Below are positions 3,169 to 52,403 of a stretch of 64,000 nt of DNA, in pieces. Under the pieces are notes generated by a model. The model did not search any database. It saw only the letters and a program-made list of their open reading frames with translations, and was not told the DNA's origin. Positions within the stretch are counted from its first letter, which is position 1. Each line of letters begins with the position of its first letter. The stretch spans positions 12,772,001 to 12,836,000 of the forward strand of contig NC_090415.1 in NCBI RefSeq assembly GCF_036365525.1, given 5' to 3'. Source of the stretch: Heterodontus francisci. Its lineage: Eukaryota. The translations under genes were made by a program, and so were the position numbers.

Positions 3169-3549
3169 TTACTTGGAGCTGGTGTACTTGGTGACCGCCT
3201 TTGTACCTTCCGACACGGCGTGTTTGGCCAGCTCCCCGGGCAGCAGCAGGCGCACGGCGGTCTGGATCTCCCGGGAGCTGATGGTCCTGCGTTTGTTGTA
3301 ATGGGCCAGGCGGGAAGCCTCACGCGCGATTCGCTCGAAAATATCATTCACAAACGAATTCATGATGCTCATGGCCTTGGAGGAGATGCCGGTGTCAGGG
3401 TGAACCTGCTTCATCACTTTGTACACGTAGATGGAGTAACTTTCTTTCCTGGATCTTCTCCGTTTCTTGCTGCCTTTCACTGGCGCCTTCTTCAGAACTT
3501 TCTTGGCGCCCTTCTTGGAAGGTGCTGCAGTTTTCTTCTCGTCAACCAT
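3169..3549 (-). CDS. H2B: Histone H2B, 126 aa
   Basis: MVDEKK...[25 protein letters not shown]...KYTSSK; ATG at 3549. Confidence 0.97.
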
Positions 3550-3600
3550 GATCACGATCAACTTCAAACACAGAATAACCGAAATTTCGCTCCAAGCTCG

Positions 3601-3735
3601 CTTTTTATAGACATCCCCAGAACCCTATGCTAATGAGGGATGGGAGAAGGCCATGTTCATGATTGGCTGGTTTACAATGATGTCACTGCCTGATGTTCTG
3701 TATCTATCTGATTGGGTATCTAAAGTAACCAATCA
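3601..3735 (-). promoter_or_regulatory. H2B promoter: TATA, octamer variant, CCAAT boxes
   Basis: CTATAAAAAG 3601-3610 (minus); ATTAGCAT 3627-3634 at the usual H2B octamer position; CCAAT near 3662, 3711 and 3729. Confidence 0.8.
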
Positions 3736-5459: not shown

Positions 5460-6420
5460 TTCCCTGCAGGACATGTGAGTGTGGGATTCATTCTGTGCCC
5501 ATCAGTATGTGATATTTACCCGTGGCTTTTACTCCATATCTGTCAATCTATGGTCAATGATTTGGTCATTTCATTCAATAATTTGAATCTTCAATAGGTG
5601 ATTGTTTTTTTTTAATTCTCCGTAACATTCAGTTTCTAAATGGGTGATGATGGGTTTTGTTCTGTGAGCGTGGGTTTTGTTATGCATCTGTTAATATCTG
5701 ATTTTGGAGTCTGGGCATTTCTCTATCTGTCAATTTCTGAATTGTGAATTTGGATTTTAATCTGCACCTGTCAGTTTCTGGTATGAAAGGTTGTTTGATT
5801 TTGTCTCTGTACCTGTTAGTAAGTGGCATTTTTGTGTAGCTTTACACAGCACATGTTAATTGATGACACGTCAGCGTTGTTTTCACTCAACATGTCAGTC
5901 TCTGGTTTGGAGACCTCACCTGTGTTCTGTATCCATCAGATGTCTACATATGAGGGTGGGTTTTAACCCGTTTCTTTCAATCTGTTGTATGTAAGTACTG
6001 TTTATTATCTGTATCTGTATGTTTCTGATGAACGAATGTGGACTGTATCGCATCCCTGTCAGTGGTTCATTAAGAGATATTTTACAAGGTACCTGCCCGT
6101 TCTGATATGTGAGTATGGGTTGTGATCTACATCTGGCCGTTTCTGGTACGAGACATGAGCATTGTTTTCACTCTGTGTACGTTTGCCTCAAGTGTCAGAA
6201 GCTGGGTTTTGTCATACATCTCATTCTCTGCTGTATGATTGTGGATTTACATCTGTACAAGTTAGTTTCTGATACGGGCGTGTGAATTTTATTCTGTATG
6301 CCAATTTCTGGTATGTGAGTGTGTGTTTTTTCTGTCCTGTCACTTTCTGTTGAACTGTATGATGGATTCGCTTTGGATCTGTGAATTTCTGCTATGTGAA
6401 TGTTGGCTTTCCTTTACATT
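5460..6420 (+). repeat. Degenerate 41-bp tandem repeat block
   Basis: Recurrent TCTGTACCTGTCAGTTTCTGGTATGTGAGTGTGG-like units. Confidence 0.8.
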
Positions 6421-6422
6421 TG

Positions 6423-9180
6423 TCATAGAGTTATACAGCACAGAAACAGGCCCTTTGGCCCACTGTGTCTTTGCCTCCCATCAAGCATGAATCTATTCGA
6501 ATCACATTTTCCAGCACTTGGCCCATAGTCTTGTATGCTATGACGTTTCACGTGTTCATCGAAATCCTTCTCAAATGCTGTGAGGGGTCCTGCCTCTACC
6601 AGCCCTTCAGGTAGTGTGTTCCAGATTCCAACCACACTCTGGGTGAAATATTTTCTCCACAAGTCCCCTCTAAACCTGCTGCCCATTACTTAAATCTATC
6701 TCCCCTGGTTGTTGATCCCTCCACTGAGGGAACGTTTTCTTCTTATCTGTACTATCAATGTCCCGTGTAATTTTGTATACCTCAATCAGTTCCCCCCTCA
6801 GCCTTCTCTGCTCCAAGGAAAACAACCCTAGCCTATCCAGTCTCTCTTCATAACTGAAATGCCACAGCCCAGGAAACATCCTGGTAAATCTCCTCTGCAC
6901 GCTCTCCATTGCAATCACGTCCTTCCTTTGGTGAGTTGACCAGAACTGTACACAGTACTCCAGCTGTGGCCTAACTAGCATTTCATTCAGCTCCCTCATA
7001 ACCTCCCTGCTCTTATATTCTATGCCTCGGCTAATAAAGACAAGTATCCCATATGCCTTCCTAACCACCTTATCTCCCCGTGCTTCTGCCTTCAGTGATA
7101 GATGGACAAGTACACCAATGTCCCTCAGACCCTCTGTACATCTTAGGATCTGGCCATTCATTGTATATTCTCTTGCCTTGTTAGGCCTCCCAAAATGCAT
7201 CACCTCACATTTTCGCACTTCTCTGGATTAAATTCCATTTGCCACTGCCCCACCCATCTTACCAGCCCATCTATATCATCCTGTAATCTAAGGCTTTCCT
7301 CCTCACTATTTATGACACCAATTTTCGTGTCATCTGCGAACTTACTGATCATATCTACTACATTCACGTCTAAATCATTCATGTACACTACAAACAGCAA
7401 TGGTCCCAGCACCGATCGCTGTGGTACACCACTGGTCACAAACGTCAACTCACAAAAACAATGCTCGACCATCACCCTCTGCTTCCTGCCACTAAGCCAA
7501 TTTTGTATCCAATTTGCCAAATTGCCCTGGACCCCATGGGCTCTTACCTTCTTAACCAATCTCCCATGTGGGACCTTATCTGAAGCCTTACTGAAGTCCA
7601 TGTAGATAACATCAACTGCCTTACCCTCATCTACACATCGAGTCACCTCCTCAAAAAATTCAATCAACTTTGTTAGACACGATTTTTTTTTTCAAGTCAC
7701 CTCCTCACTCTGCTTATTATTAAATATTTTTATTAATTACCACCTCCCCCACTCCCTGACATTTTCTATAATCCTCTGGCCTCCGCTGTTTTCTGCCCTA
7801 AGCCTCTCTTTTTTTTTTCCGTTATCCAATCCTCGATATCCCTTGACATCCAGGGTTCCCTGGATTTGTTTGTCCTACGCTTCACCTTTATGGGAACATG
7901 TTGACCCTGAACTCTCATTATTTCCTTTTTGAATGACTCCCACTAGTCTGATGCAGACTTTCCTATAAGTAGCTTCTCACAGTCCACTTTGGCCAGATCC
8001 TGTTTTATCATATTGAAATCGGTCTTCCCCAAATTGAGTACATTTATTTCTGGTCCCTCTTTGTCCTTTTCCATAACTTCCTTAAATATTACAGAGTTAA
8101 TGCCACTATCCCCGAAATGCTCCCCCACTGACACTCCTACCACTTGTCCGGCTTCACTCCCTAGGATTAGGTCGAGCACGGCTCCTTCTTTAGTCGGACT
8201 TTCTACCTGCTGGCTCAAAAAGATCTCCTGTATGCACCTTAAGAATTCTGCCTCCTTTAAGCCATTTGCACTAAGACGATCCCAGTTGATATTGGGTAAG
8301 TTGAAATCCACTACAATTATTACCCTATTATTTTTAAACCTCTCTGAGATTTGCCTACATATCTGCTCCTCTATCTCTCACTGACTGTTTGGAGGCCTGT
8401 AGTGCACTCCCAGCCAAGTGATTACCCCCTTTTTGTTTTTATGTTCTACCCATATGGATCATTTGAGGAATGTTCGAAGATATCATCCCTCCTTATACAG
8501 GAATTGACTCCTTGATCAACTGTGCACTGCCACCTCCTATTTTATACCCTCCCCTGTCATGCCTTAAGATTCAATACCCTGGATTATTGAGCTGCCAGTC
8601 CTGCCCTTCCTTCAACCATGTCTCCGTGAAAACAATAATATCATATTTCCGTGTGTTAATAAATGGCCTCAATTCATCTACCTTACTAGTAAGACTCCTT
8701 GCGTTAAAATAGATGCAATCCAGCCTTGCATTGTTAGTTTGTGTCTTAACATGTCTGCATTTTCTCTGCCTTCCAGACTGACTCAGTTTCTCTTCTATAT
8801 TTGACTGTGCATCAACCCTTACTGCACGTCCCCTCTGTATCCCACCCCCTTGCCAAATTAGTTTACAACCACCACCCACCCCCCTCCCCCAAAAGCACCT
8901 GTAAACCTCCCAGCAAGGATGTTGGTCCTGATCCAGTTCAGGTGCAATCTGTCCAACTTGTACAATTCCCACCTTGGCCAGAAACAGACCCAGTGATCCA
9001 GGAAATTCAAGCCCTCCCTCCTGCACTATCTCTTCAGCCACACATTCATCTGGTCTATGCTCCTATTCCTATAATCACCTGCATGTGGCAGCGGGGGTAA
9101 TCCAGCGATTACAACTTTTGCGGACCCCTTTTCTTTAATCTGCTACCTTGCTTTTGAAGTTCATGTTGCATGACCTCATC
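6423..9180 (-). mobile_element. CR1 LINE, decayed and internally deleted (esterase ORF1 end, endonuclease, RT, 3' tail)
   Basis: ORFs 8571..9041 (YFNARSL, ETWL), 7943..8311, 7200..7667 (DFSKA, KFADDTK), 6670..7218; GGGCC-AAA-GGGCC tail. Confidence 0.9.
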
Positions 9181-9184
9181 CCTC

Positions 9185-9900
9185 TTTGTGCCTGTCAGTT
9201 TCTGGTATGGAATAAAGATCTTTACTCTGTACCTGCTAGTTGCTGGCAAGTGATTGTGACATCAATCCATATCTGTCAGAGTGTGATGTTACTTCAGATT
9301 TTACTCTTCAGCTGTCAGTTTCTGACATGTGAATATGGATTTTCCTCATTCTGGTCACTTACTGCAATGTAAGTCACTCCTTTATTCTGTGCCTGTCAGT
9401 TTCAGGTCTGGAAGAAAGATTTTTTTCATTACCTTTTATAATCTGGCAAGTGAATGTGAGATCACCCTGTATCTGTCAGTTTGTGACATATTACTGTGAC
9501 TTTTACTCTTCACTTGTCAGTTTCTGATACGTGAATGTTTATTTTATTCTGGGTGCCTGTCAGATACTAAAATGCAAGTATGTTTGTTACTTGTAATTAA
9601 TTGGAGTGTTTACTCTTGATCTGTCACTCTCTGGAATGTGAGTGTGGCTCTTACTCTGTGTCTGTCTGTGTTGGATTTGCCAGCAAGTGTTTTCCTTTGC
9701 CTTTCTGTTCCTGATATGTGAATGTGAATTTTACTATGTACCTCTCAGTTACTGGTATGTGATCGTGGTTTTATTCTGTCTCCATGAGCCTATGATTAAT
9801 GATTGCAGCTTGTGTCCAAGGCATGTCAGTATCTTGTTTGCACATGCCCATTCTTATGTGCATGTTGCTTTATGGGAAATGACTAAAGGATTTACTCTTT
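9185..9900 (+). repeat. Degenerate 41-bp repeat block
   Basis: TGTCAG at 9474, 9515 and 9558. Confidence 0.75.
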
Positions 9901-9978
9901 CTTCTGCCATATTACTTCTATGGCTTCAAGGGCTGGTCAGAGACTGGGAATTCTGTGATGAGCAACTCATGTCCTAAC

Positions 9979-10239
9979 TTAGTTTAGTTTAGAGATACAG
10001 CACTGAAACAGGCCCTTCGGCCCACCGAGTCTGTGCCGACCATCAACCACCCATTTATACTAATCCTCCACTAATTCCATGTTCCAACCACATCCCCACC
10101 TGTCCCTATATTTCCCAAACACCTACCTATATTAGGGGCAATTTATAATGGCCAATTTACCTATCAACCTGCAAGTCATTGGCATGTGGGAGGAAACTGG
10201 AGCACCCGGAGAAAACCCATGCAGACACAGGGAGAACTT
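9979..10239 (-). mobile_element. HE1-type V-SINE, 5'-truncated
   Basis: GGTTTCCTCCCACA-type V core; GGGCCGAAGGGCCTGTTTCAGTGCTGTATCTCT(AAACT)n tail. Confidence 0.85.
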
Positions 10240-10288
10240 CCCAAAGTCTTTCTACCACCTACAAGCCACAAGTCAGAATTCTGATGGG

Positions 10289-12163
10289 TACTCCAGGGAG
10301 AATGCTGTCACTGAGACTGCCCTCAATGCAGCCCAGCCTCTACCAGTCATGGATGAGCTGGACATACAGCCAACCAAATCGGAACTCAGTGATGCCATTG
10401 ATTCCCTAGCCAGCGGAAAAGCCCCTGGGAAGGACAGCATTACCCCTGAAATAATCAAGAGTGCCAAGCCTGCTATACTCTCAGCACTACATGAACTGCT
10501 ATGCCTGTGCTGGGACGAGGGAGCAGTACCCCAGGACATGCGCGATGCCAACATCATCACCCTCTATAAAAACAAAGGTGACCGCGGTGACTGCAACAAC
10601 TACCGTGGAATCTCCCTGCTCAGCATAGTGGGGAAAGTCTTTGCTCGAGTCGCTCTGAACAGGCTCCAGAAGCTGGCCGAGCGCGTCTACCCTGAGGCAC
10701 AGTGTGGCTTTCGTGCAGAGAGATCGACTATTGACATGCTGTTCTCCCTTCGTCAGATACAGGAGAAATGCCGTGAACAACAGATGCCCCTCTACATTGC
10801 TTTCATTGATCTCACCAAAGCCTTTGACCTCGTCAGCAGACGTGGTCTCTTCAGACTACTAGAAAAGATCGGATGTCCACCAAAGCTACTAAGTATCATC
10901 ACCTCATTCCATGACAATATGAAAGGCACAATTCAACATGGTGGCTCCTCATCAGAGCCCTTTCCTATCCTGAGTGGTGTGAAACAGGGCTGTGTTCTCG
11001 CACCCACACTTTTTGGGATTTTCTTCTCCCTGCTGCTTTCACATGCGTTCAAATCCTCTGAAGAAGGAATTTTCCTCCACACAAGATCAGGGGGCAGGTT
11101 GTTCAACCTTGCCCGTCTAAGAGCGAAGTCCAAAGTACGGAAAGTCCTCATCAGAGAACTCCTCTTTGCTGACGATGCTGCTTTAACATCTCACACTGAA
11201 GAATGCCTGCAGAGTCTCATCGACAGGTTTGCGTCTGCCTGCAATGAATTTGGCCTAACCATCAGCCTCAAGAAAACGAACATCATGGGGCAGGATGTCA
11301 GAAATGCTCCATCCATCAATATTGGCGACCACGCTCTGGAAGTGGTTCAAGAGTTCACCTACCTAGGCTCAACTATCACCAGTAACCTGTCTCTAGATGC
11401 AGAAATCAACAAGCGCATGGGTAAGGCTTCCACTGCTATGTTCAGACTGGCCAAGAGAGTGTGGGAAAATGGCGCACTGACACGGAACACAAAAGTCCGA
11501 GTGTATCAGGCCTGTGTCCTCAGTACCTTGCTCTACGGCAGCGAGGCCTGGACAACGTATGCCAGCCAAGAGCGACGTCTCAATTCATTCCATCTTCGCT
11601 GCCTTCGGAGAATACTTGGCATCAGGTGGCAGGACTATATCTCCAACACAGAAGTCCCTGAAGCGGCCAACATCCCCAGCTTATACACACTACTGAGTCA
11701 GCGGCGCTTGAGATGGCTTGGCCATGTGAGCCGCATGGAAGATGGCAGGATCCCCAAAGACACATTGTACAGCGAGCTCGCCACTGGTATCAGACCCACC
11801 GGCCGTCCATGTCTCCGTTATAAAGACGTCTGCAAACGCGACATGAAATCGTGTGACATTGATCACAAGTCGTGGGAGTCAGTTGCCAGCATTCGCCAGA
11901 GCTGGCGGGCAGCCATAAAGACAGGGCTAAATTGTGGCGAGTCGAAGAGACTTAGTAGTTGGCAGGAAAAAAGACAGAGGCGCAAGGGGAGAGCCAACTG
12001 TGCAACAGCCCCAACAAACAAATTTCTCTGCAGCACCTGTGGAAGAGCCTGTCACTCCAGAATTGGCCTTTATAGCCACTCCAGGCGCTGCTTCACAAAC
12101 CACTGACCACCTCCAGGCGCGTATCCATTGTCTCTCGAGATAAGGAGGCCCAAAGAAGAAAGA
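10289..12163 (+). mobile_element. RTE-clade LINE, 5'-truncated, with an uninterrupted 605-codon RT plus C-terminal zinc-finger frame (10289-12106)
   Basis: YRGISLL, QCGFR, FIDLTKAFD, GVKQG, FADD, CSTC...H...C; short 3' UTR with AAAGAAGAAAGA tail; ACTC duplication 10290-10293/12164-12167. Confidence 0.95.
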
Positions 12164-12520
12164 ACTCTCCACTTGCTTGGTTGAGTGCAGCTCTAAAAAC
12201 ACCGAAGAATCTTGATACCATCCAGGACAAATCAGCAGGCTTGATTATCTTACCATTCACCAGGTTATGCATTTACTCCCTCCACCCACCAGTGCACAGT
12301 GTGTCCCATCTAAAAGATGTACTGCATCAACCTGAGGAAGTACCGTACAACAGCACCTTCCAAACCCATGACATCTGCTACTGACTGGAACATGGGCAGC
12401 AAGCTTATGAGAACATTACCACCTGCAATTTCATCTCTAGTTTGCACAACATCCTGACTTCAAAAATATAACACCATTCCTTCATCATCACTCAGCCCAA
12501 ATTCTGGAACTCCCACTTTT
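12164..12520 (+). mobile_element. Old CR1/L2-group LINE 3' remnant, the host of the RTE (5' piece at 10240-10293)
   Basis: Both flanks align contiguously with 30190-30600. Confidence 0.75.
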
Positions 12521-12953
12521 ATGAATGACATTCGTTCTGTAGCTGTTCATCAATGGTACAGTCTGAGTGTAGAACTTATTCTGCATCTGACACTCTGAAA
12601 GACAGGGTCTGTTTGTTTATATTTAAGGAACAATGAAGGATCTCTTACACACCTAGATCTGTCCAAATATCTGTCCCTCTTTGTATGGTGTGTGTGTGAG
12701 GGATTCATTCTTTATCTCAGAATGTGGAATGTGACTATATTTATCTCTGTCACTTACTGATATGTGCATGTGCACTTTTCACTCTATCTGCCAGCTTCTG
12801 ATGTGAGTGGATTGTTTTCTGTACCTGTCATTTACTGATGAATTGAACGGTGGTTTTGGTTTGAATCGCTCACTTTCTGTTATGTGAATATGAGTATTCC
12901 TTCGTACTTGTCAATTACTGGTATTGAAGTAAGATCTTTAAACTGCACCTAAT

Positions 12954-13193
12954 ACAAAGCAAAATACTGTTAATGCTGGAAATTGGAAATAAAAGCAGAA
13001 AATTCAGTAAATACACAGCAGGACAGCCAGCATCTGTGGAGACAGAAACAGAATTAGCCTTTCAGGTCAATGACCTTTCATCAGAAAGGTCTGTCCTGAT
13101 CAAAGGTCATTGACCTGAAATGTGAACTGAATTTCTCTCTCCACAGGTGCTGCCAGACTTGCAGAGCATTTCCAGCATTTTCCATTTTCATTT
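12954..13193. mobile_element. Head-to-head inverted pair of short Penelope terminal fragments
   Basis: Two copies of CTGAT(G/C)A-AAGGTCATTGACCT-GAAA...CTCCACAG(A/G)TGCTG in opposite orientation. Confidence 0.8.
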
Positions 13194-13194
13194 A

Positions 13195-14070
13195 CACTGT
13201 ACATGGACATGTACATGTTCTGGCAAGTGAATGTGGGATCAATATTTAACCTTTCAGTTCTGATACGCAAATGAGGATTTTACCCAGCATGTTGTCAGTT
13301 CCTGCAGTGCAATTATCTGATTTATTCTGTAACTTTATGATTGTGGTAATTGATTGTGGGTTTGACCCTACATCTACCAGTCTCTGTAATGTGAATGTGG
13401 CTATTACTCTGTATTTATCTGTGCACAATTTGTGAGTGTTTGTTTTCCTCTCCGTGTCTGTTTCTGACATGTAAATGTGGATTTTGCTATGTACCTCAGT
13501 TACTTTATGTGTATGTGCTTTATTCTGTTTCTGTCCATCTGTGGCGAGCTTCACATTTTCCCTGTACCTATCAGCATCACACTTCTTTGTATGGCCATTA
13601 TTCTGCACTTGTTGGTTTATGGTAGTGCTTGAATTACTCTTTCCTTCTCAGTCTCTGATATGCTACTATAGATTTTCCTCTTTACTTGTAAGATTCCACT
13701 CTGTGATAATGTTGTTTCTCTGTCTGTCTGCGTCTGGTATGCTATTGTAAGATTTACTGTGTGCCCATCAGGTTCTGGTATTTAAGTATGAAGTTAACAT
13801 TGTAACATTCAATTTGATCTGTGTGAATCTGCTTCTGCCTTGAACTGACAGTTTCTATTCTGTGAGTGTACATTTACAAGTGCACTTGTTAATTTCTGCT
13901 AAATAACTGTTTGTTTTACTCTGTGCATGTCAGTTGCTGCAATGGGAAGTTGGGAAAGGTTTTTAATTCTGAAAATGGCAATTACCGATAAGTAAATGTG
14001 GGTTTTACTCAGTAACTCTCATTCTCTGGTATTTGAGTTTGTGTCTTTTTATTCTGGTTAGCTGTCACAC
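13195..14070 (+). repeat. Degenerate 41-bp repeat block (also 12530-12950)
   Basis: Same unit; paralogous to 40600-41355. Confidence 0.7.
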
Positions 14071-18399: not shown

Positions 18400-20330
18400 T
18401 AAGTTTCACTGTATATCTCTCAATCCCCAGTCTACAATTTACCTCTTTCATTTTCGGATTTTGAGTGTGGCTTTATCTGCACCTGTCAGTTTGTTTTATG
18501 TTAGAAACGTCTTATTCAGTACCTTTCAGCTTCTGTTGTGTGTGTGTTCTGGCTTGTAATTTGTCCCCATCAGTATATGGTATGTGAGTGTGGATTTGAC
18601 AGTTAATATTACATTCTTGGCATATGAGTGGGAGTTCATACTTTATCTTTGATTGTCTAGTAGCCAATTTAAGGTTTAACCTGCGCCCTTAAATGTCTCA
18701 TGTGTAGCTGTGGTTTTTAACCTGTCTCTGTCACTGTCTGCTACAAGAGTAAGGGTTTCCGTCTGTTATTTGAGTGTGGAATTTACATCTCTACATTCTC
18801 TCGGATGTGAATGTGAGTTTTAATCTATACATGCCAGTTTCTGACATTTGGCTGTGAGGTTTACTTTGTACATTGTCATTCTCTGATATGTGACTGACAA
18901 TTTTATTCTGAACCTGTCAGTTTATATTCTGTCTGTGTGAGTTTTAGCCTGTATCTGTCAGTGTCTGATATATGAATCTTCTTAATTATGTGTGTGTTGA
19001 TCTGTATCTATCAGTGTCTGGAGTGCAATTGTCAGTTTTACTTTGTACCTGTCAGTGTCTGTTGTGGATGAGAGACTGTCACTCTCTAACTGTTAACTTC
19101 TTGCAATTCATTATGGATTTCACTCTGTGTCTGTCAGTCTCTGGTAGTTAAGTGCAGCATTTATACTGTATCTCCTAATTTCTGATATGTGAATGTAGAT
19201 ATTAATGTGTACCTGTTGGTTTCTCCTATGAGAGTCTGGGCTAAAATCTGTTTCTGCCAGTTTCTCTTATGTGAGGGTGGCATTTATTCAGTACCTGTTA
19301 CTGTCTGAATTGTGAGAAGGTTTTAATCTTTCTCTGTCAGTTGCTGGTTTGTGAATGTGGGTTTATTCTAGATCTTTTAATGTTTGTTATTTTCTGGGAT
19401 ATGATTGTAGTTTTTGATCTGTATCTGTCAGTTTCTATTACTTGAGTGAGTTTTACTTTGCACCAGTTGTCTTTTTAGATTTCGATTTAGATTTAGATAT
19501 ACCGCACTGAAACAGGCCCTTCGGCCCACCAACCATCAACCACCCATTTATACTAATCCTACACTAATTCCATATTCCTACCACATCCCCACCTGTCCCT
19601 ATATTTCCCTACCACCGACCTATACTAGGGGCAATTTATCATGGCCAAATTACCTATCAACCTGCAAGTCTTTGGCATGTGGGAGGAAACCGGAGCACCC
19701 GGAGGAAACCCACGCAGACACAGGAAGAACTTGCAAACTCCACACAGGCAGTACCCAAAATTGAACGCGGGTCGCTGGAGCTGTGAGGCTGCGGTGCTAA
19801 CCACTGCGCCGTCTTCTGGTATGTGAGTGTCAGTTTTAAGCTGGACCCGTAAAGTTAAGGTATGAAAGTGTGGGTTTATTCTGTATCTTTCAAACTCTAG
19901 TGTGTGACATGGGGCCTTTTTCTGAATCTGTCGATTTCAGCTCTGTAACTGTAAGTTTTAATCTGCAACTTACAGTTCCTGATAGGTGTGTGAGCACATT
20001 TTCTTTTTTTCTGCAGCGATCAACGTCGACTACATGAGGATGTGTGTTGTTCCTATCTTTCAATTTCTAGCATTGAAGAATTGCTTTTCCTTTGAACATC
20101 TCAGTCTCTGCAATGTGTCCATGGGTTCTACATGGTAACTGTCTGTCTCTGTTAAGTGACTCTGGTGTGATTCTCTATCTGACAGTCTCTTACCTGTGAG
20201 TGGTTTTATTTTCTTCTCTGTAGCTGTCAGTTTCCCTTCAATGGCTGGAGGTTTTAATCTTTACTTAAACTCTTTAATAATTTGTAAATGTGAATTTCAC
20301 TCTGTGTCTGTCTGTGTACATTATCTGAAT
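18400..20330 (+). repeat. Degenerate 41-bp repeat block, interrupted by a SINE
   Basis: GTCAG-like anchors at 19051, 19133, 19256 and 19297, spaced in multiples of 41. Confidence 0.85.
19474..19810 (-). mobile_element. HE1-type V-SINE
   Basis: tRNA-like head GGCGCAGTGGTTAGCAC...GTTCAATT; TSD GTCTT 19469-19473/19811-19815. Confidence 0.9.
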
Positions 20331-20655
20331 GTGGTTAGCACCGCAGCCTCACAGCTCCAGCAACCCGGGTTCAATTCTGGGTACTGTCTGAGTGGAGTTT
20401 GCAACTTCTCCCTGTGTCTGCGTGGGTTTTCTCCGGGTGCTCCGGTTTCCTCCCACATGCCAAAGACTTGCAGGTTGATAAGTAAATTGACCATTATAAA
20501 TTGTCCCTGGTATCGGTCGGTGGTAGGGAAATATAGTGACAGGTAGGGATGTGGTTGGAATTACTGTAGGATTAGTATAAATGTGTGGTTGATGGTCGGC
20601 ACAGACTCTGTGGGCCGAAGGGCCCGTTTCAGTGCTGTATCTCTAACTAACTAAA
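20331..20655 (+). mobile_element. HE1-type V-SINE
   Basis: GTGGTTAGCACCGCAGCCTCACAGCTCCAG head and (CTAA)n tail; absent from the paralog near 25665. Confidence 0.9.
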
Positions 20656-21339
20656 CATCAGTTTCAGGTATGTGAGGGTGAGATTCACTGTCTCCAGAAT
20701 GCGTCCCTCTTGTGAAATTGACAGAGTGCCTTTTAATCTGATCGTGGGTTCTGCTTTTGAACTTTACCAACTTTCAGCAGTATTGATTTGGAATGGATTG
20801 GATACAATGTCTGTCTCTTCTGATTTGTTTGATTGCTGAATTGGAAATGTGTCTCTAAACTTAGGATCAGTGAAACTTTGACTACATCTGCTTCTTGTGA
20901 CAATGACATGAACTGAAGGCCTATGGGAGTGGTACTGTACCTTGTGATGGAAGGAGCCGACTGCACTTGCCCTTGTGCCTGGGAATCATCACATTCATTC
21001 TGCTCCCTTGAACTATTCACCGACAGTAAGGAAGAAAACTATGTCTTGTAAGTCACGATCAGTTGAGGTGGAAGCTGGAAAAGAGATTAATGTAACATTT
21101 CAATTAATAATATTTATGACTAATCACAAAGGCGAACCAAAAATACAAAGAATATCACTGTCTGATTCCACTGCAGCTCTCAGCATCTGCTGACGAGGTG
21201 TCCTGGCAGTTTCACAGCAATTTTGAGACATCCAGAAACAAGCCAACATCTACACTGCTCCAAGATTGGAACGATCTGATGGAGCAGGGATATTTGTGCA
21301 GGTCAGGTTTCTATTTAGATCTGGCATTATAATGTAATA

Positions 21340-21950
21340 ACCTAAGAACTAGGAGCAGGAGTCAGCCATTCAGCCTCTCCAGCCTGATCCACCATTCAAT
21401 AAAATCATGTCTGATTTGATCTTGGCTTCATTTCCATTATCCTGCCTGGCCAAAAGCCCATTCCTCCCTTGTAGATCAAAAGTTTAACTCATCCTTGAAT
21501 ATATTTCATAATCCAGCCTCCACTACTCTCTGGTGCAGAGAATTCCATCGATTAATGATGCTTTGAGAGAAGAAATTCTTCCTTACCTCTGTCTAACATG
21601 GTAGACCCCTTATTCTGAAACTGTGCGACGTGGTTCTTGATTCCCTCAGGAGGGGAGATATCTTCTCAGCATCTACTCTGTCAAGACCCCTCAGAATCTT
21701 ACATTTTTCAATAAGATTAGCTCTGATTATTACTAATTCCAATGTTTGTAACACAAACTGCTCAACCTTTTGCTCATAAGACAGCCTCTTCATCTCAGGA
21801 ACCAACCGAACGAATCTTGCCTGAACTGCATCCAATGCACGAAGGAGACCACAACTGTATCCACTACTCCAGGTAAGGGCTCACCAACACCCTGCAAATT
21901 TGTAGCAAAACTTTCCTAAATTTATATTCCAGCCCCCTTGCAGGTAATGC
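21340..21950 (-). mobile_element. CR1 3' fragment (paralog at 26380-26960)
   Basis: ORF 21593..21835 DAVQARFVRL...LRGLDRVD. Confidence 0.8.
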
Positions 21951-22054
21951 CAAAAGTCTGGCTCTGTTTTCACTATTCACTTTTCAATAACAACAAACAG
22001 CGTGAAACCAGAGCTAAACCAGGAACAAGCATTACAGGTTTGAGAAGCAATTTT

Positions 22055-23895
22055 TTTGTTCATTACTTCTGCCATTTCCTTATTACCAAACTTGAACTTT
22101 CAATTTTCATTCTCTCGAGGACCAACACTCACTTTACTTACACTTTTCCTTTTCAAATGCCTGCAGAAACCCTTGCTATCCGTTATTACATTTCTAGCTA
22201 GCTTACTCCCGTGCTCTAATTCCTTTGCTCCTGATTAAACTTTGGTCAGAATATATAGAATGGCACAGAATGACTCAATCATCTGACCTACCACTCATCT
22301 TTGCACAATTGTATGTCTTTTCATTCAGGTTGATGCCTTCCTTAACTTCTTTAATCAACCATGGATGGAGGATCCTCCCCTTGGAATTATTCTTTACAGT
22401 AGGGATATACTTATTTAAAGTATTCTGAAATATCCACTTAAATGTCTGCCACTGCTTCTCAATTGATCAATTGATCCCAGTTCACTTCAGCTAGCTCAGC
22501 TTTCATGCCCACATAGTTGTCCTTATTTAAGCTTAAAATATTAGTCTTAGACCCACTCCTCTCACTTTCAAACTGGATGCAAACTTCAATCATATTGTGA
22601 TCATTGCTACCAAGAGGTGCATTTCCTCTGAGGTCATTAATTAATCCTGTCAAATTGCACAATGCCAAATCGAGCAAGTTCTAGAACATGCTGCTGGAAG
22701 AAACTATCTCGAAAGCACTCTATGAACTCCTCATACAGGCTTCTATTACCAATCTCATTCTTTCCAGTTTATAATTATTTACTTCAGACATACAGCACTG
22801 AAACAGGCCCTTCAGTCCATCGAGTCTGTGCCAACCATCAACCACCCATTTAGACTAATCCTACATTAATCCCATATTCCTACCCCATCCCCACCTTTCC
22901 TCAATTCTCCTATCACCTACCGAAACTCGGGGCAATTTATAATAGCCAATTTACCTATCAACCTGCAAGCCTTTGGCTGTGGGAGGAAACTGGAGCACCC
23001 GGTGAAAACCCACAGAGTCACAGGGAGAACTTGTAAACTCCGCACAGGCAGTACCCAGAATTGGACCTGGGTCGCTGGAGCTGTGAGGCTGCGGTGCTAA
23101 CCACTGCACCACTGTGTTGTTTAAAAACACCTGTGATTCTTTCCATCTCATTATCACAAGCACCCAATAGATATTCTTGTATCCTTCATCCTAAATTGTG
23201 ATTACTGTCTGGGGGCCTGTAGACTGTTCCGACTGGTGCCTCTTTCCCCCGACTATTCCTCATCTCCACTCAAACCGATTCTACATCCTGATCTCCTGAA
23301 CCAAGGTCATGTCTAACAATTGCACCAATACGATCCTTGATTAACAGTGCCAGCTCTCCACCTTTACCTAGCTTCCTGTTCTTCTTGAATGTTACATATC
23401 CCTCAATATTGAGGACCTAATCCTTGTCATCCTGCAGCCATGTCTCCATAATGACTATTAGATCATATTTATTTACTTCAGCGTGTGCTATCAGTTTCTC
23501 TACTTTGTTATGAATTCTACATGCATTCACATAAAGAGCCTTTGGTGTTATCTTTTTGTTATCTTTGTCACATCTAGTGTTGACTGTTCGTCTGCTCTTA
23601 GGTTATTTTTCTCTGCCCCTTCCTGCCATTCTTTGGCCTTCATTTCCCATATTACTATTGTGTTCTCCCACCTTGACTCTACCCCTTGATTTGTTACATC
23701 TACTAAAGCTTGATGACTCTACCACTTTGTTTAGATCAAGTACCTCTCTACATCCCTAGTTATATGGTTTTCTCGAACACTGGTCCCAGCTTGGTTCAGG
23801 TGTAGACTGTCCAAATGGTACAGCCTCCACTTTCCCTAGTACTGGTGCCAGTGCCCGACGAAGCGATCCTCACTTCTCCCACACCAGTCTTGGCG
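22055..23895 (-). mobile_element. Decayed CR1 endonuclease region, duplicate of 15365-18385 lacking the nested CR1
   Basis: ORF 22459..22677 LGSNDHN; nucleotide alignment to the paralog. Confidence 0.8.
22781..23116 (-). mobile_element. HE1-type V-SINE
   Basis: Head, V core and tail all present. Confidence 0.88.
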
Positions 23896-23904
23896 GGTGT
23901 AAGT

Positions 23905-25700
23905 TTCACTGTATATCTCACTCCCTGGTCTACAATTTACCTCTGTCAGTTTCAGTTTTTGAATGTGGCTTTATCTGTACCTGTCAGTTTGTTTTATGTG
24001 AGAAATGTCTTATTCTGTACCTTACAGCTTCTGGTGTATGCGTATCTGTCTTGTACCTTGTCCCCATCAGTATATGGTATGTGATTGTGGATTTGACACA
24101 ATATTACATTCTTGTGTATATGAGTGGGGGTTCACACTTTATCTTTGATTGTCCAGTATGCCAATTTAAGGTTTAACCTGTGCCCTTAAATGTCTCATGT
24201 GTAGCTGAGGCCTTGAACCTGTCCCTGTCTGGTATAAGAGTAAGAGTTTCAGTGTGGATTTTACACCACATCTCTCCACGCTCTCGGATGTGAATGCGAT
24301 TTTTAATCTGTACATGCCAGTTTCTGACACTGGCTGTGAGGTTTACTTTGTACATTGTCATTCTCTGAAATGTGACTGCCAATTTTATTCTGAACCTGTC
24401 AGTTTTTTTTCTCTGTGTGTGAGTTTTAGCCTGTATCTGTCAGTATCTGGTATATGAATCTTCTTAATTATGTGTGTGTTGTTCTGTATCTATCAGTGTC
24501 TGAAGTGCAATTGAAAGGTTTACTTTGTACCTGTCAGTGTCTGTTATGGATGAGAGACTTTCACTCTCTGTTAACTTCTTGCAATTCACTATGGATTTCA
24601 CACTGTGTCAGTCAGTCTCTGGTAGGTAAATGTGGCATTTATACTGTATCTCCTAATTTCTGATATGTGAATGTAGATTTTAATGTGAACCTGTTGATTT
24701 CTCCTATGCAAGTCTTTTTACAATCTGTTTCTGCCGGTTTCTCATATGTGAGGGTGGCATTTATTCTGTACCAGTTACTTTGCGAAATGTGGGAAGAATT
24801 TACTCTTTCCCTGTCAGTTGCTGGTATGTGAATGTGAGTTTATTCTGGATCTTTCAATCTTTGGAATTTGAGTCCATGCTTTACCCTATATCTGTTTGCT
24901 TCTGTTAAGTGAATGAGGGATTAAATCTGTACCTGTCCATTGATTGTATATGAATGTAGTTTTCAGTCTGTACCTGTCAGTTTATGGAAAATGAAAGTGG
25001 TTTTATTTCACTAACTGCCAGATTCTGATATGTGACTGTTGTTTCATTCTTTACTTGTTATTTTCTGGGATATGATTCTGGTTTTTGATCTGTACCTATC
25101 AGTTTCTGTTACTTGAGTGAATTTTACTTTGCACAGTTGTCTTCTGATATGTGAGTGTCAGTTTTAAGCTGCACCTGTATGATAGGTTAAACCTCAAGGT
25201 ATGATAGTGTGGGTTTATTCTGTGTCTTTCAAACTCTAGTCTGTGACATTTGGCCTTTCTCTGAATCTGTCGATTTCTGTTCTGTAACTGTACGTTTTCA
25301 TCTGCAGATTACAGTTCCTGATAGGTGTATGAGCATATTTTCTTTGTCTGCAGTTATCAATGTCTATTACATGAGTATGTGTGTTATTCCTAGATTTCAA
25401 TTTCTGTTATTGAAGAAATGATTTTCCTTTGTGCTTCTCAGTCTCTGCAATGTGTCCATGGCTGTTACTGGTAACTGTCTGTCACTGTTAGGTGACTCTG
25501 GTTTTATTCTCTATCTGACAGTCTCTTGCCTGTGAGGGGTTTTATTTTCTGCTCTGTAACTGTCAGTTTCCTTTCTGTGGCTGAATGTTTTAATCTTGAC
25601 TTAAACTTTTTAATAATTTGTAAATGTGAATTTCACTTTGTGTCTGTCTGTATACATTATATGAATGAGTTTATTTTTATTTTGTCAACATCAGTTTCAG
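23905..25700 (+). repeat. Degenerate 41-bp repeat block
   Basis: Paralog of 18400-20330. Confidence 0.85.
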
Positions 25701-27310
25701 GCATGTGAGGGTGAGATTCACTGTCTCCAGGATGCACCCTCTTGTGAGATTGACAGAGTGCCTTTTAATCTGATAGTGGGTTCTGCTTTTGAACTTTACC
25801 TAACTTTCAGCAGTATTGATTTGGAATGGATTGGATACAATGTCTGTCTCTTCTGATTTGTTTGATTGCTGGATTGGAAATGTGTCTCCAAACTTAGGAT
25901 CAGTGAGAGTTTGACTACATCTGCTTCTTGTGACAATGCCATGAACTGAAGGCCTATGGGAGTGGTACTGTACCTTGTCTGTGATGGAAGGAGCCGACTG
26001 CACTTTCCCTTGTGCCTGGGAATCATCACATTCATTCTGCTCCCTTGAACTATTCACCGACAGAAAGGAAGAAAACTATGTCTTGTAAGTCACGAGCAGT
26101 TGAGTTGGAAGCTAGAAAAGAGATTAATGTAACATTTCAATTAATAATCATTATGACTAATCACAAATGCAAAACAAAAATACAAAGAATATCACTGTCT
26201 GATTCCACTGCAGCTCTCAGCATCTGCTGACGAGATGTCTTGGCAGTTTCACAGCAATTTTGGGACATCCAGAAACAAGCCAACATCTACACTGCTCCAA
26301 GGTTGGGACGACCTGATGGAGCAGGGATATTTGTGCAGGTCAGGTTTCTATTTCCATCTGGCATTATAATGTAATAACCTAAGAACTAGGAGCAGGAGTC
26401 AGCCATTCAGCCTCTCCAGCCTGATCCACCATTCAATAAAATCATGTCTGATTTGATCTTGGCTTCAGCTCCATTATCCTGCCTGGCTAAAAACCCATTA
26501 CTCCCTTGTAGATCAAAAAATTAACTCATCCTTGAATATATTTAATCATCCAGCCTCCACTTCTCTCAGGGGTAGAAAATTCCATAGATTAATGACGCTT
26601 TGAGAGAAGAAATTCTTCCTTACCTCCGTCTGAAATGGGAGACCCCTTATTCTGAAACTGTGCGGCGTGGTTCTTGATTCCCTCGAGGGGAGGTATCTTC
26701 TCAGCATCTACTCTGTCAAGACCCCTCAGAATTTTACATTTTTCTATAAGATTAGCTCTGATTATTACAAACTCCAATGAGTGTAACACAACCTGCTCAA
26801 CCTTTTCCTCATAACGTAACCTCTTCATCACAGGAAGCAACCGAACGAACCTTGCCTGAACTGCATCCAATGCGAAGGAGACCACAACTGTATCCGGTAA
26901 TCCAGGTGAGGTCTCACCAACAACTGACGTTTATATTCCATCCCCCTTGCAATAAATGCCAACAGTCCGGCTCTGTTTTCACTATTCACTTGTCAATAAC
27001 AACAAACAGCGTGAAATAGGAGCTAACCCAGGAACAAGCATTACAGGTTTGAGGATAAAAACAGCCATGAATTTCAACAGCAGGTTCTTCACCTTTTGTC
27101 TCACTTACGCAGTGCACACGCAGCCCAAGAAATGCCTCTGCCTTCCGCCGCTCACTCCATGTTACCGGATCACTTCCTGCCTCACTCTGTCTCTTGCAAA
27201 CAACTCGCAACCCTCCTGAACTTGCCCCAAAGTCAATGACGATCTCTGAGCCAGATTGCGGACAAGTTTCCCCAAACAAAGTGCTGCTGGAAGGAGACTG
27301 CTGTTTGCTG

Positions 27311-27480
27311 ACTTACCCCGATACTGTAATATCTCCATTCCCTCTGTTAAAAACAAACCCTTTCCCCTCTTTGAATAAATGCCGTTCAATAGCTTTGCAG
27401 GCACAGGGGAGCGCATGCGCTCAGTCGGTCAACAACTCTCAGAGGTGTGGGCGGGGCTTTACCGCGCATGCGCTTCTTTC
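27311..27480 (-). promoter_or_regulatory. Candidate promoter and first exon: two NRF1-type palindromes, GC box, downstream splice donor
   Basis: GCGCATGCGC 27411-27420 and 27464-27473; GGGCGGGG between them; minus-strand ATG at 27338 and GTAAGT at 27316-27311. Confidence 0.55.
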
Positions 27481-36913: not shown

Positions 36914-36929
36914 GGCTCTTAAAAGAGCC
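36914..36929 (-). terminator. H2B stem-loop
   Basis: GGCTCTTTTAAGAGCC on the minus strand. Confidence 0.95.
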
Positions 36930-36968: not shown

Positions 36969-37349
36969 TTACTTGGAGCTGGTGTACTTGGTGACCGCCT
37001 TTGTACCTTCCGACACGGCGTGTTTGGCCAGCTCCCCGGGCAGCAGCAGGCGCACGGCGGTCTGGATCTCCCGGGAGCTGATGGTGCTGCGTTTGTTGTA
37101 ATGGGCCAGGCGGGAAGCCTCACCCGCGATTCGCTCGAAAATATCATTCACAAACGAATTCATGATGCTCATGGCCTTGGAGGAGATGCCGGTGTCAGGG
37201 TGAACCTGCTTCATCACTTTGTACACGTAGATGGAGTAACTTTCTCTCCTGGATTTTCTCCGTTTCTTGCTGCCCTTTGTTGGCGCCTTCTTCTGAACTT
37301 TCTTGGCGCCCTTCTTGGAAGATGCTGCAGTTTTCTTCTCGTCAACCAT
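36969..37349 (-). CDS. H2B: Histone H2B, 126 aa
   Basis: Canonical histone fold; ATG at 37349. Confidence 0.97.
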
Positions 37350-37497
37350 GATCACGATCAACTTCAGACACAGAATAACCGAAATTTCGCTCCAAGCTCG
37401 CATTTTATAGACATCCCCAGAACCCTATGCTAATGAAGGATGGCAGAAGACGATGCTCATGATTGGCTGGTTTACAATGATGTCACTGCCTGATGTT

Positions 37498-38439: not shown

Positions 38440-39425
38440 TCCCTGCAGGACATGTGAGTGTGGCTTTCATTCTGTGCCTGTCAGTATGTGATATTTAACT
38501 GTGGCTTTTACTCCGTATTGGTCAATCTATGGTCAATGATTTTGTGATTTAATTCAGTAATTTCAATCTTCAATCGGTGATTCTGTTTTTCTTTCTTTCT
38601 CTGTAACATTCAGTTTCTAAATGGGTGATGATGGGTTTTGTTCTGTACCTATGAGCTTCTACTGAGTGAGTGTGGGTTTTGTTATGCATCTGTTAATATC
38701 TGCTTTTGGAGTCTGGGCATTTCTCTTTATCTGTTAATTTCTGAATTGTGAATTTGGATTTTAATCTGCACCTGTCAGTTTCTGGTATGAAAGGTTGTTT
38801 GATTTTGTCTCTGTACCTGTTAGTAAGTGACATTTTTGTGTAGCTTTACACAGCACATGTTAATTGATGACACGTCAGCATTGTTTTCACTCTACATGTC
38901 AGTCTCTGGTTTGGAGACCTCACCTGTGTTCTGTCCCCATCAGACGTCTTCATATAAGGATGGGTTTTAACCTGTTCCTTTCAATCTGTTGTATGTAAGT
39001 ACTGTTTATTATCTGTATCTGTAAGTTTCTGATGAATGAATGTGGACTGTATCACGTCCCTGTCAGTGGTTCATTAAGAGATATTTTACACTGTACCTGC
39101 CCGTTCTGATATGTGAGTGTGGGTTGTGATCTACGGCTGGCCGTTTCTGGTATGAGACATGAGCATTGTTTTTACTCTGTGCATGTTAGCCTCAAGTGCA
39201 GAAGCTGGGTTTAATAGTACTGCTCACTCTCTGCTGTATGATTATGGATTTTCATCTGGACAAGTTAATTTCTGGTACGGGCATGTGAATTTTATTCTCT
39301 ATGCCAATTTATGGTATGTGATTATGTGTTCTTTCTGTTCTGTCAGTTTCTGCTGAACTGTATGGTGGATTTGCTTTCAATCTGCCAAGTTCTGCGATGT
39401 GAATGTTGGTATTACTTTGTATTTG
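38440..39425 (+). repeat. Degenerate 41-bp repeat block
   Basis: Paralog of 5460-6420. Confidence 0.8.
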
Positions 39426-39429
39426 TCAT

Positions 39430-40410
39430 CGAGAGATAGAGTCATAGAGTTATACAGCACAGAAACAGGCCCTTAGACACATTGATGGCCGGCACAGGCA
39501 CAATCAGTGATCTATTCTAATCCCATTTTCCAGCACTTGGCCCATAGCCTTGTATGCTATGGCCTTTCAAATGTATATCTAAATACTTCTTAAATGTTGT
39601 GTGGGGTCCTGCCTCTACCACCCCTTTCAGGTAATGTGTTCCAGATTCCAACCACCATCTGGGTGAAAATGAAAAAAAAAACAATCCTCAAAACTCCTCT
39701 AAACCTCCTGCTTCTTACATTAAATCATGGCTGATCTGTTTCTGACTTGAATTCCACACTCCTATCTCCTCCCAATAATCTTTGATTCCCTTGCCTAACA
39801 AGAATCAATCAAGACCTGACTGAAAAAAAATATATTCATTGACACCGCCTCCACCACATTCTAAAGCACTGAATTTCAAAGTCTCACAAACCTCAGAGGG
39901 ATAAAAAAAATCTCCTCATCTCGGTCCTAAAAGTGTGACCCATACTTTTAAAGCAGCGCCCCCGATTTCTGAACTCATCCACAAGAGGAAACATCCTTTC
40001 CCCATCCACCTTGTCAAGACCATTCAGGATCTTATACACTTCAATCAAGTCTCCCCTCACTCTTCTAAACTCCAGTGAAAACTAACCCAGTCTGTCCAAC
40101 CTTTCCTCATAAGACATCCACTCAATCCAGGTATCAATCTAATAAACCTCCTCTGAAACACCTCCAACACATTTACTTCCTTCCTTAAATATGGAGACCA
40201 AAACTGCACACAGTATTCGAGCTGTGGTCTCACCAAAGCCCCGTATAACTGAAGCATAACATCCTTAGATTAATTTTCAATTCCTGTTGGAATAAAGGAT
40301 AACTTTCCAATTGCCTTTGTGATTTGCCATACCTGCATACTAACGTTTTATGACTCAAGCACAAGAACACCTGGATCCCTCTGCACCTCAGAATTCTGCA
40401 GTCATTCTCC
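39430..40410 (-). mobile_element. Two fused CR1 3' fragments
   Basis: Tail matches 6423-6690; ORF 40057..40257 [15 protein letters not shown]. Confidence 0.8.
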
Positions 40411-40412: not shown

Positions 40413-40598
40413 AGATACTCAGCAGGCCTGCCAGCATTTGTGGAGACAGAAACAGAGATAACCATTCTGGTCAATGGTCTTTCATCAGAAAGGTCTGTTC
40501 TGATCGAAGGTCATTGACCTGAAATGATAACTCACTTTCTCTCTCTACAGGTGCTGCCAGATTTGCAGATTATTTCCAGCATTTTCTGTTTTCATTTC
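40413..40598. mobile_element. Inverted Penelope terminal pair (paralog of 12954-13193)
   Basis: Same TCATCAGAAAGGTCTGT(T/C)CTGATC centre. Confidence 0.75.
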
Positions 40599-40599
40599 C

Positions 40600-41355
40600 A
40601 CTGTACATCGTATATTCTGGCAAATGAATGTGGGATTAATCTTTAACCTTTGGTTTCTGATCTGTAAATGTGGGTTTTACCGAGCATGTTGTCAGTTACT
40701 GCAATGCAAATATCTGTTTTATTCTGTAACATTTTGTTTGTGGTAATTGATTGTGGGTTTTACTCTGCATCTGCCAGTCTCTGTAATGTGAATGTGGCTT
40801 TTGTCTGTGCATGATTTGTGAGTATGTGTTTTACTTTCCCTGTATGTTTCTGAATGTGGATTTTGCTATGTACCTCAGTTACTTTATGTGTATATGTTGT
40901 ATTCTGTTTCTGTGCATCTATGGTGAGTGTAACATTTCCCCTGTATCTATCAGAATCACTCTTGCGAGGATGGTCATTATTCTGTATTTGTTGGTTTATG
41001 GTAGTCCTTGATTTATACTTTTACGGTCACTCTCTGATATGCTACTATACAGTTTACTCTGCACTTGTCAGATTCTGCTATGTGATATTGTCTTTTATCT
41101 ATCTGTCTGTGTCTGGTATCCTATTGCAAGTTTTACTGTCTACCCATCAGCTTCTGGTATTTAAGTATGAGGTTCACATTGTATCTTTCATCTTGTTCTG
41201 TGTGAATCTGCTTCTGCCTTGAACTGACAGTTTCTACTCTGTGAGTGTACATTTGAAGGGTGCTTGTTAACTTCTGCGAAATAGATGATAGTTTTACTCT
41301 GTGCATGTCAGTCACTGCAATGGGAAGTTGGGATTCATGCTGTATCTGCCATTTG
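40600..41355 (+). repeat. Degenerate 41-bp repeat block
   Basis: Paralog of 13195-13955. Confidence 0.75.
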
Positions 41356-46454: not shown

Positions 46455-46469
46455 TAAAACTAAAAGCTA

Positions 46470-47312: not shown

Positions 47313-47314
47313 TG

Positions 47315-48790: not shown

Positions 48791-48794
48791 ATGT

Positions 48795-52267: not shown

Positions 52268-52403
52268 CTGAAGAAGGGTCACTGACCTGAAACGTTAACT
52301 CTGCTTCTCTCTCCACAGATACAGCCAGACCTGCTGAGTATTTACAACATTTCTTGTTTTTATTTCAGATTTCCAGCATCCGCAGTATTTTGCTTTTTAT
52401 TAT
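52268..52403 (+). mobile_element. Short Penelope-derived insertion that begins at the hammerhead core
   Basis: CTGAAGAAGGGTCACTGACCTGAAACGTTAACT; TSD AACATTCATTACTG 52257-52270/52404-52417. Confidence 0.9.

Follow-up and report, generated by a model that had tools for sequence, protein, structure and literature searches.

A repeated promoter–exon module in a horn shark histone locus as a candidate distal promoter and spliced leader of H2B

Replication-dependent histone genes are textbook intronless genes that end in a stem-loop and are expressed in S phase. A 64,000-nucleotide stretch of the horn shark Heterodontus francisci (contig NC_090415.1, positions 12,772,001 to 12,836,000; hereafter the window, to which all statements about DNA refer) raises the question of what a repeated module of promoter, exons and 41-bp tandem array is doing among such genes. 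An initial annotation put this module forward as a candidate family of spliced long noncoding RNAs (lncRNAs) ending in the array, or equally a decayed gene family. The module is probably not a stand-alone repeat lncRNA, and it heads the spacer of a tandem histone repeat, with its promoter 15–24 kb and its exons 14–22 kb in front of two H2B genes. About an even chance is given here to the reading that it constitutes a distal promoter and leader exons of H2B, serving a low-level supply of this histone outside S phase.

The window contains seven histone stem-loops and two histone units: unit I has H2A and H2B at 1.8–3.5 kb, and unit II has a complete H1, H4, H3, H2A and H2B set at 32.5–37.3 kb. 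Self-comparison reveals the same order of parts in both units on the minus strand, which is that of H2B: promoter, exon-2 segment, arrays A, B and C, about 0.8 kb of unique DNA, and H2B. Identity between the units drops outward from H2B, from 97% in the gene to 91% in array C, 85% in B, 86% in A, 72% in the exon segment and 67% in the promoter. All module copies in the window share one orientation and are tied to the histone unit; those at 21 kb and 63 kb are partial duplicates. Both H2B genes are canonical, with a 3' stem-loop (Histone3 matches at 3089–3134 and 36890–36934). The unit I gene (3169..3549, minus strand) has its own TATA promoter, and its 5' region (3550..3624) offers two candidate splice acceptors, one (TAG/) 75 nt before the ATG and upstream of the TATA box, the other (AAG/) 12 nt before the ATG. 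The same two are found at H2B of unit II (36969..37424, minus strand), where H2A lies next and H3, H4 and H1 are facing; the acceptor positions are 3561 and 3624 in unit I and 37361 and 37424 in unit II. The cluster to which the unit I protein belongs has 22 members, of which the 14 named ones listed are H2B of Heterodontus francisci without exception, and at least 21 H2B clusters of the same kind are among those listed; the locus is part of a large horn shark histone array.

The promoter is recognizable by twin motifs about 52 bp apart that the initial annotation had pointed out in two segments. GCGCATGCGC occurs at 27411, 27464 and 52775 and GCGCATGAGC at 52826, which gives pairs spaced 53 bp in unit I (27411..27473) and 51 bp in unit II (52775..52835); this twin pattern has two places in the window and none in 100 shuffles. 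The observed-to-expected CpG ratio is 0.90 in the unit I promoter and 0.82 in that of unit II, versus 0.40 in the window and 0.13–0.19 in the array and the second segment. GCGCATGCGC is the consensus of NRF1, a broadly active factor (PMC10810270; statements on this and the other papers cited here refer to the excerpts available), and together with the CpG ratios this match bears out the proposed NRF1/CpG promoter.

Splicing within the module is seen in contigs. Seven sequencing runs guessed to be RNA, from two studies, hold 5–18% of sampled sequence words, and contigs of four of them (X1, X2, X3 and X5; two per study) were aligned to 23120–28110 at 82% likeness. The contigs carry no strand or library record, 15 of their 40 joints are listed, and contig depth (high at 25959–26125; array low in X1 and X2, similar in X3) and a gap in cover at 27462–27962 (X1, X2) were not used as evidence. 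Five of the 15 listed joints, and one further joint, connect the exon-1 zone to the exon-2 zone, in both studies. Four of these resolve to GT donors (27092 twice, 27104 and 27108) with either the AG at 26112 or a 51786-type exon start. The joint 26111–27093 skips CT..AC, that is, GT..AG on the minus strand (X1 and X2; two contigs each); joints 26054–27092 and 26054–27108, with TG between (X1, X2), use donors 27092 and 27108; and joint 26054–27130, with 29 letters between (X3, X5), uses donor 27104. The 26054-type joints lead to the exon start G-C-A of the 51786-type acceptor, whose AG is presumed, the unit I copy having CG at this position (26058). Joint 26308–27105 (X5) pairs donor 27104 with an acceptor near 26313, and joints 26167–27150, 27176–27269 and 25955–26178 fit no splice explanation. 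With self-comparison and the promoter motifs, these joints uphold the earlier proposal of a multi-copy, minus-strand spliced unit of polymerase II type that is co-amplified with histone genes.

Exon 1 of unit I (27093..27390, minus strand) is delimited by the contig joints, its 5' end being approximate and placed from the promoter position only. Family members use three donors, 27108 (GTAAGT), 27104 (GTGAGA) and 27092 (GTGAAG), which lie 4, 12 and 16 nt apart; this speaks against a single reading frame through the exon 1–exon 2 joint. The donor initially predicted at 27316 is absent among the 15 listed joints, and contig records 15 and 31 run unbroken across it. The ATG followed after 22 nt by GTAAGT, from which it had been predicted, is indeed present at 27338 and 52713, as the only two of 12 minus-strand GTAAGT with such spacing, but the two represent a single homologous site that is not unusually well kept, its identical run of 9 nt falling below the longest expected at 67% identity (median 13). 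In the listed contigs this element (27311..27338, minus strand) lies within exon 1, where it would act as an upstream ATG. A coding first exon (MEILQYR/METLQAW) was rejected, the frames stopping after 58 and 15 codons in modelled joins, and an 84-residue exon-1 frame has no match in Pfam, no protein search having been made with it. Sequence comparison alone places the exon-1 region of unit II (52400..52770, minus strand), in which GTAAGT at 52691 is kept and the three unit I-type donors are lost. Intron 1 holds a LINE-like relic (26380..27050; LINE, long interspersed nuclear element) with a 66–72% match to other dispersed relics.

The second segment is present four times, as first described and as self-comparison confirms, in two subfamilies (21k/26k and 52k/63k) about 70% alike. 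Exon 2 of unit I (25974..26111, minus strand) measures 138 nt from the AG at 26112, or 84 nt from 26058, and ends in AG/GTACAG; this donor (25973 in the 26-kb copy) and the exon-2 ATG (26026) are kept in all four copies, for an exon of 84 or 138 nt. The others, likewise on the minus strand, are a tandem duplicate with a 4-nt deletion and no promoter of its own in front (20941..21074), the 84-nt exon 2 of unit II (51702..51785), which gives the best match to a smooth-hound H2B extension, running on to about 51608, and exon 2 of a third, partial copy (63363..63446), placed by sequence comparison. All four AGs initially listed as acceptors exist, and those of the 26112 and 51786 types are seen at joints, but they are two non-homologous sites rather than one: 21075/26112 and 51786/63447 lie 54 nt apart, and each subfamily lacks the other's AG. 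The segment was also said to run directly into the array, which holds for the 26-kb copy (unit at 25671) and, across a short interspersed nuclear element (SINE), for the 21-kb copy, but not for the 52-kb and 63-kb copies, behind which scattered units and a 2-kb LINE relic precede the main array.

Between subfamilies, exon 2 (58/84) is no better kept than its flanks (101/143 and 79/106). In the 21k/26k pair the exon segment is closer than its flanks (27/670 versus 288/2930), a patch that may be read as conversion, not selection, because its limits are not those of the exon and the opposite is seen in other pairs. No reading frame is open in all copies, as had been stated. A coding exon 2 was rejected, since differences between subfamilies show no third-position excess (9, 6 and 11 by position) and protein searches were empty; the 52k/63k pair has 2, 2 and 9 differences by codon position, but the frame has stops. 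The module peptides found no relatives in protein searches, and none of four matched Pfam, versus five of eight neighbouring transposable-element frames. Two further candidates were discarded: exon 2 as decayed array units, which gave no clear periodic matches, and a downstream zinc-finger gene, for which three loose pattern matches included no real finger array.

The link from exon 2 to H2B comes from annotated shark proteins. N-terminal extensions were collected, non-randomly, from the best 120 of 7435 protein matches and from listed cluster members picked for coming from sharks and being either extended or isoform-labelled, and 38 distinct extensions were scanned on both window strands by least base difference per codon. 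Most (25/38) are the genomic frame upstream of H2B only. At the sequence level, exon 2 matches extensions of annotated H2B in two other shark orders, from three loci of the zebra shark Stegostoma tigrinum and two of the starry smooth-hound Mustelus asterias. For the 48-residue extension of the two smooth-hound loci (P0235 and P0238), the four exon-2 copies rank first in a blind scan and share the ATG, with 46–49 bits, 0/100 shuffles as high, a tblastn E value of 4.5e-6 for P0235, and at least 30–31 base differences in 144. For zebra shark P0152, the top four matches are the four exon-2 copies when one frameshift is allowed (0/60 shuffles for residues 1–41, 1/60 for 1–57), the match not being significant without it. 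Its first part fits the acceptor frame (7/39 differences), an anchor picked once the match was known; the second part stops at AG/GTACAG (19/57 differences, P 0.0005 anchored), after which a second copy of the exon start follows (8/27). P0090 and P0151 share this exon in anchored tests only (P 0.018 and 0.005). P0150, from the third zebra shark locus, fits exon 2 to its last base (20/57; P 0.009 versus the best of 88 placements) and continues into four codons of the H2B 5' untranslated region (UTR).

Other models address the H2B end of the join. In five isoform-labelled models the genomic frame is left four codons ahead of the H2B ATG, at the place of AAG/ in the window. In horn shark model P0139, CAG/GTGAGG inside array C is joined to the TAG/ that precedes the H2B TATA box, a join that requires an upstream start, and horn shark model P0060 joins a short repeat to the acceptor upstream of that TATA box. 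Extensions of P0101, P0157, P0221 and P0251 and residues 1–36 of P0238 had no placement in the window, P0101, P0157 and P0106 being wholly or largely unplaced there; for MQMD of P0008 the window holds no exact source, and none of the H2B-model extensions could be linked to exon 1. Isoform labels, or runs of consecutive accessions for a single protein, are common among shark H2B entries and presumably mark UTR variants. The start of H2B model P0111, from Hemiscyllium, matches the H1 promoter region (32417) on its antisense strand. At the other end of the gene, GT lies across the stop codon in both H2B genes (3169–3172 and 36969–36972) and C-terminal extensions occur in several shark H2B models (P0155, P0159, P0161, P0176, P0125 and P0181), hinting at 3' splicing; none of the six exceeds all shuffles in the window, and their exons were not placed there.

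If these annotations reflect real RNA and the same exon 2–H2B join is made in the horn shark, the parts would combine as follows. The NRF1/CpG promoter at the head of the spacer would be a second, distal H2B promoter, driven by NRF1 independently of the cell cycle. Its primary transcript would cross the spacer, and exon 2 would be spliced to H2B over an intron of 22.4 kb in unit I or 14.3 kb in unit II. The array would then be mostly intron, as the exon 2–H2B joins in models from two other orders suggest, an old array carried along by unit duplication and giving occasional cryptic exons and read-through. The long-leader message would be translated outside S phase, its output being dampened by upstream ATGs. 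Four modelled leaders contain 3–6 of these versus 0 in the short leader, which together with an exon-2 ATG that is out of frame with H2B in the window would make for low output. Supply outside S phase is favoured because NRF1 promoters are broadly active and because in humans spliced, polyadenylated forms from cluster H2B genes provide for non-dividing cells (PMC5100578, PMC3661734).

Several observations weigh against this reading. The upstream ATGs and the out-of-frame exon-2 ATG mean that protein yield may be near zero, and between the two subfamilies the splice sites are no better kept than their flanks, which the initial annotation had named as a point against the module. Most joints have only 22–30 letters on the short side (22–45 overall) at 82% likeness, and at 12/12 sites checked the contigs carry the letter of in-window paralogs, not of the unit I copy, so the splicing that they document is that of family members, not of the 27-kb copy itself. 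One X5 contig continues below 25955 and an X3 contig covers 25782–25794, past the donor toward the array, and the array is covered by contigs in 4/4 runs. No contig joins exon 2 to H2B in the horn shark, within an aligned stretch (23120–28110) that excludes H2B, and none of the horn shark models examined contains exon 2. The exon 2–H2B link rests on computed gene models from other sharks, only 6 of the 38 extensions map to exon 2, and three of these (P0090, P0150 and P0151) do so in anchored tests and not in blind scans. In the smooth-hound models the reading continues through AG/GTACAG to about 90 nt past the donor, where a genomic fusion is indistinguishable from splicing. Some models may also be forced: P0060 attaches a short repeat to H2B, P0136 a LINE relic and P0111 the H1 promoter in antisense.

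One alternative view is that the transcript is a by-product: an old promoter trapped in open histone spacer, whose RNA splices without function to any downstream site, H2B included. Splice sites that turn over between subfamilies, several donors and acceptors in use, an exon 2 no better kept than its surroundings, an array drifting like transposon relics and gene models that join H2B to assorted spacer pieces all agree with it. Such a view is nevertheless unlikely, given that two promoters only 67% alike have both retained their twin NRF1 sites and CpG content, that the linkage of exon 2 to H2B persists in three shark orders, and that the exon-2 ATG, kept in 4/4 copies, starts models in both other orders. 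Another alternative, in the manner of a long undecoded transcript isoform (LUTI), retains the H2B join and reverses its effect: the H2B frame would sit behind inhibitory upstream ORFs (open reading frames) and yield little protein, and transcription through the H2B promoter would lower the short S-phase mRNA. The leaders with their 3–6 upstream ATGs are as this would predict, and, with one of the acceptors ahead of the TATA box, transcription would pass over the proximal promoter; the mechanism has been described for yeast NDC80 and human MDM2 (PMC5655150, PMC6469420). Against it, NRF1 is broadly active (PMC10810270), which by our reasoning contrasts with a stage-specific switch, and H2B is the only one of five histone genes in the transcript's path on the sense strand; this outcome is very unlikely.

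Also judged quite unlikely is the model of the initial annotation, in which the members of a separate family of spliced lncRNAs have the 41-nt array as their last exon and act as a protein scaffold at the histone locus. It can point to exon 1–exon 2 splicing in family members, to contigs that pass the exon-2 donor and cover the array in 4/4 runs, to module peptides without a protein match, to a longest ORF of 79 codons in the read-through model, within the range of shuffles, to 36 AATAAA on the transcribed array strand versus 11.6 expected, and to transcribed 41-bp repeats that form nuclear domains in chicken (PMC7151628). The contigs have no strand and may be unspliced RNA or DNA, however, and a scaffold sits poorly with array units 49–56% alike, with no column kept above 86%, and with an array broken by many LINEs and SINEs. 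The joining of exon 2 to H2B in models from two other orders, alongside an array that drifts like transposon relics, also tells against a repeat-scaffold last exon, although read-through forms might still act as a scaffold.

The 41-bp array itself is real, as initially reported, with 214 profile matches on the plus strand and 1 on the minus, a commonest spacing of 41 and 67% identity to the consensus. In unit I, block A (23900..25720) has 37 units, its T-rich strand being plus; block B (9175..14070) is split by an RTE-type LINE and a short repeat into pieces at 9.2–9.8, 12.5–13.0 and 13.2–14.1 kb; and block C (5480..6450) has 14 units and, at 5919, the CAG/GTGAGG that serves as donor in a paralogous H2B gene model. 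In unit II, block A (47300..48800) has 31 units, block B (40590..41340) 15, and block C (38440..39450) 17, with 38953–38924 on the minus strand matching the first exon of H2B model P0139. A duplicate of block A (18400..20660) has 32 units split by two SINEs, and a third copy (56990..58160) has 24 units and no histone gene directly after it; all eight stand on the plus strand. The array is thus wider than first described, with extra blocks at 5.5–6.4, 9.2–9.8, 12.5–14.1, 38.4–39.4 and 40.6–41.3 kb, and, once insertions are discounted, it reaches to about 0.8 kb of the H2B start.

Within a block the units are 49–56% alike (about 53%), versus 79–93% by best match for corresponding blocks of different units, so the array is old and was copied with the histone unit, without the unit homogenisation of an active satellite. 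Its copies diverge like the flanking transposon relics (597/5731 versus 635/5594 substitutions, P 0.12), and a length constraint on the 41-bp unit was rejected, gaps per substitution being the same as in the relics (P 0.32). The array RNA folds no better than shuffles (z 0.14), and neither intron nor array shows sign of hosting a small nucleolar RNA or microRNA, with no Rfam match (best E 0.21) and no stable fold (z 0.14 and 0.77). RNA signals are distributed asymmetrically, with 36 AATAAA and 26 CAGGTA on the minus strand and 1 AATAAA and 35 GT[AG]AGT on the plus strand, an asymmetry that follows from the unit consensus. A 21-base array pattern had one chance bacterial match in metagenomes and none in viral contigs.

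The remainder of the window is rich in mobile elements, whose class names (CR1, RTE, Penelope and SINE) rest partly on Pfam matches. Between array C and the H2B promoter, unit I alone has an insertion with a GIY-YIG fragment (Penelope-like; 4098–5192), instead of which unit II has a SINE inside the H2B promoter (37499–37796). An RTE-type LINE (10148–12106 and 1–558) has an open 652-codon reverse transcriptase frame and was recently active, to judge by a second copy with 96% identity. The CR1-type copies at 16442–17229, 44757–46460 and 52850–53360 are young (97.6% alike) and have an esterase ORF1, and the 5' end of one CR1-type element directly adjoins the unit II NRF1 sites, pointing away. The tRNA-like ARAGORN call at 44676–44748 falls within a SINE head and is no tRNA gene in its own right. 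Among the histone genes, a decayed H2B C-terminus fragment lies at 1051–1217 on the plus strand, where unit II carries H3, and H1 (32467–33180), 237 residues long, carries a 30-bp repeat in the tail and has no identical entry in the protein collection searched. A third CpG-rich, promoter-like stretch (54500–54880; observed-to-expected CpG 0.97) contains GCGCATGTGC at 54705, TGACGTCA, which we take to be a YY1-like word, and a pyrimidine-AG on the plus strand at about 54876; the stretch has no assigned gene. It is flanked by an inverted pair of CT-rich and GA-rich repeats (53920–54300 and 55820–56454); as a relative of the module it was rejected, being unrelated to the module promoters.

A shark histone-spacer transcript or distal H2B promoter was not found in the titles and opening abstract lines of papers that searches of the open full-text literature listed, and the available excerpts of two shark genome papers (bioRxiv 2025.06.08.657570, PMC10620051) do not mention such a transcript. 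Joins of exon 2 to H2B already stand, unremarked, in public gene models. Should the distal promoter and leader reading hold, it would explain many odd "isoform X1/X2" H2B entries in shark annotations and would show splicing and stem-loop processing competing on one gene; a 5' arrangement, its housekeeping-type promoter 14–22 kb away, copied along with the histone unit and possible to follow through three shark orders, would represent an independent way of supplying H2B, or of restraining it, outside S phase. A wider version is possible but doubtful: in at least three shark orders, each unit of the histone repeat would have a second promoter built in, by which H2B is switched from one message, short and of S phase, to another, long, spliced and with upstream ORFs, or back. 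The H2B output of non-dividing or germ cells would then be set by transcription running through the array and across the H2B promoter.

Satellite DNA among newt histone genes is a homogeneous 222-bp repeat; the shark array is decayed, with units about 53% alike. The histone read-through into satellite of newt and Xenopus (PMC11602149) resembles the present case in its tandem repeats between histone genes, which here appear in RNA-type contigs. There, transcripts start at histone promoters and run on, whereas the shark spliced RNA would start at its own promoter and head toward H2B. Chicken CNM and PO41 (PMC11602149, PMC7151628) likewise have a 41-bp unit and transcribed arrays, but these are centromeric and subtelomeric higher-order arrays, and the likeness is one of unit length only, with no sequence relationship implied. 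Xist and Rsx (PMC6633197) offer a parallel in being spliced RNAs of polymerase II type near tandem repeats, the shark module itself having no conserved ORF; unlike them, it is multi-copy, is joined to a coding gene in other sharks' models, and has repeats that are probably intronic and drifting.

Closer parallels are found among protein-coding genes. Yeast NDC80 and human MDM2 (PMC5655150, PMC6469420) have a distal promoter and a 5'-extended isoform with the full ORF behind upstream ORFs in the leader; the shark module likewise has a distal promoter on the same strand, upstream of the gene's own, and upstream ORFs in its modelled extended leaders. The shark target differs in being a tandemly repeated histone gene whose leader would be spliced across a long, repeat-filled intron, and any silencing is putative. 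In human HIST1H2BC, BD and BK (PMC5100578, PMC3661734), a canonical stem-loop cluster H2B also gives spliced forms, for which supply outside S phase has been proposed. The human introns lie 3' of the coding region and lead to a downstream exon, whereas the shark exons lie 5', at a distance of 14–22 kb, and follow an NRF1/CpG promoter of their own that recurs along with the histone unit. By analogy, the module thus appears most like the spliced human H2B messages or, if silent, the long isoforms of NDC80 and MDM2.

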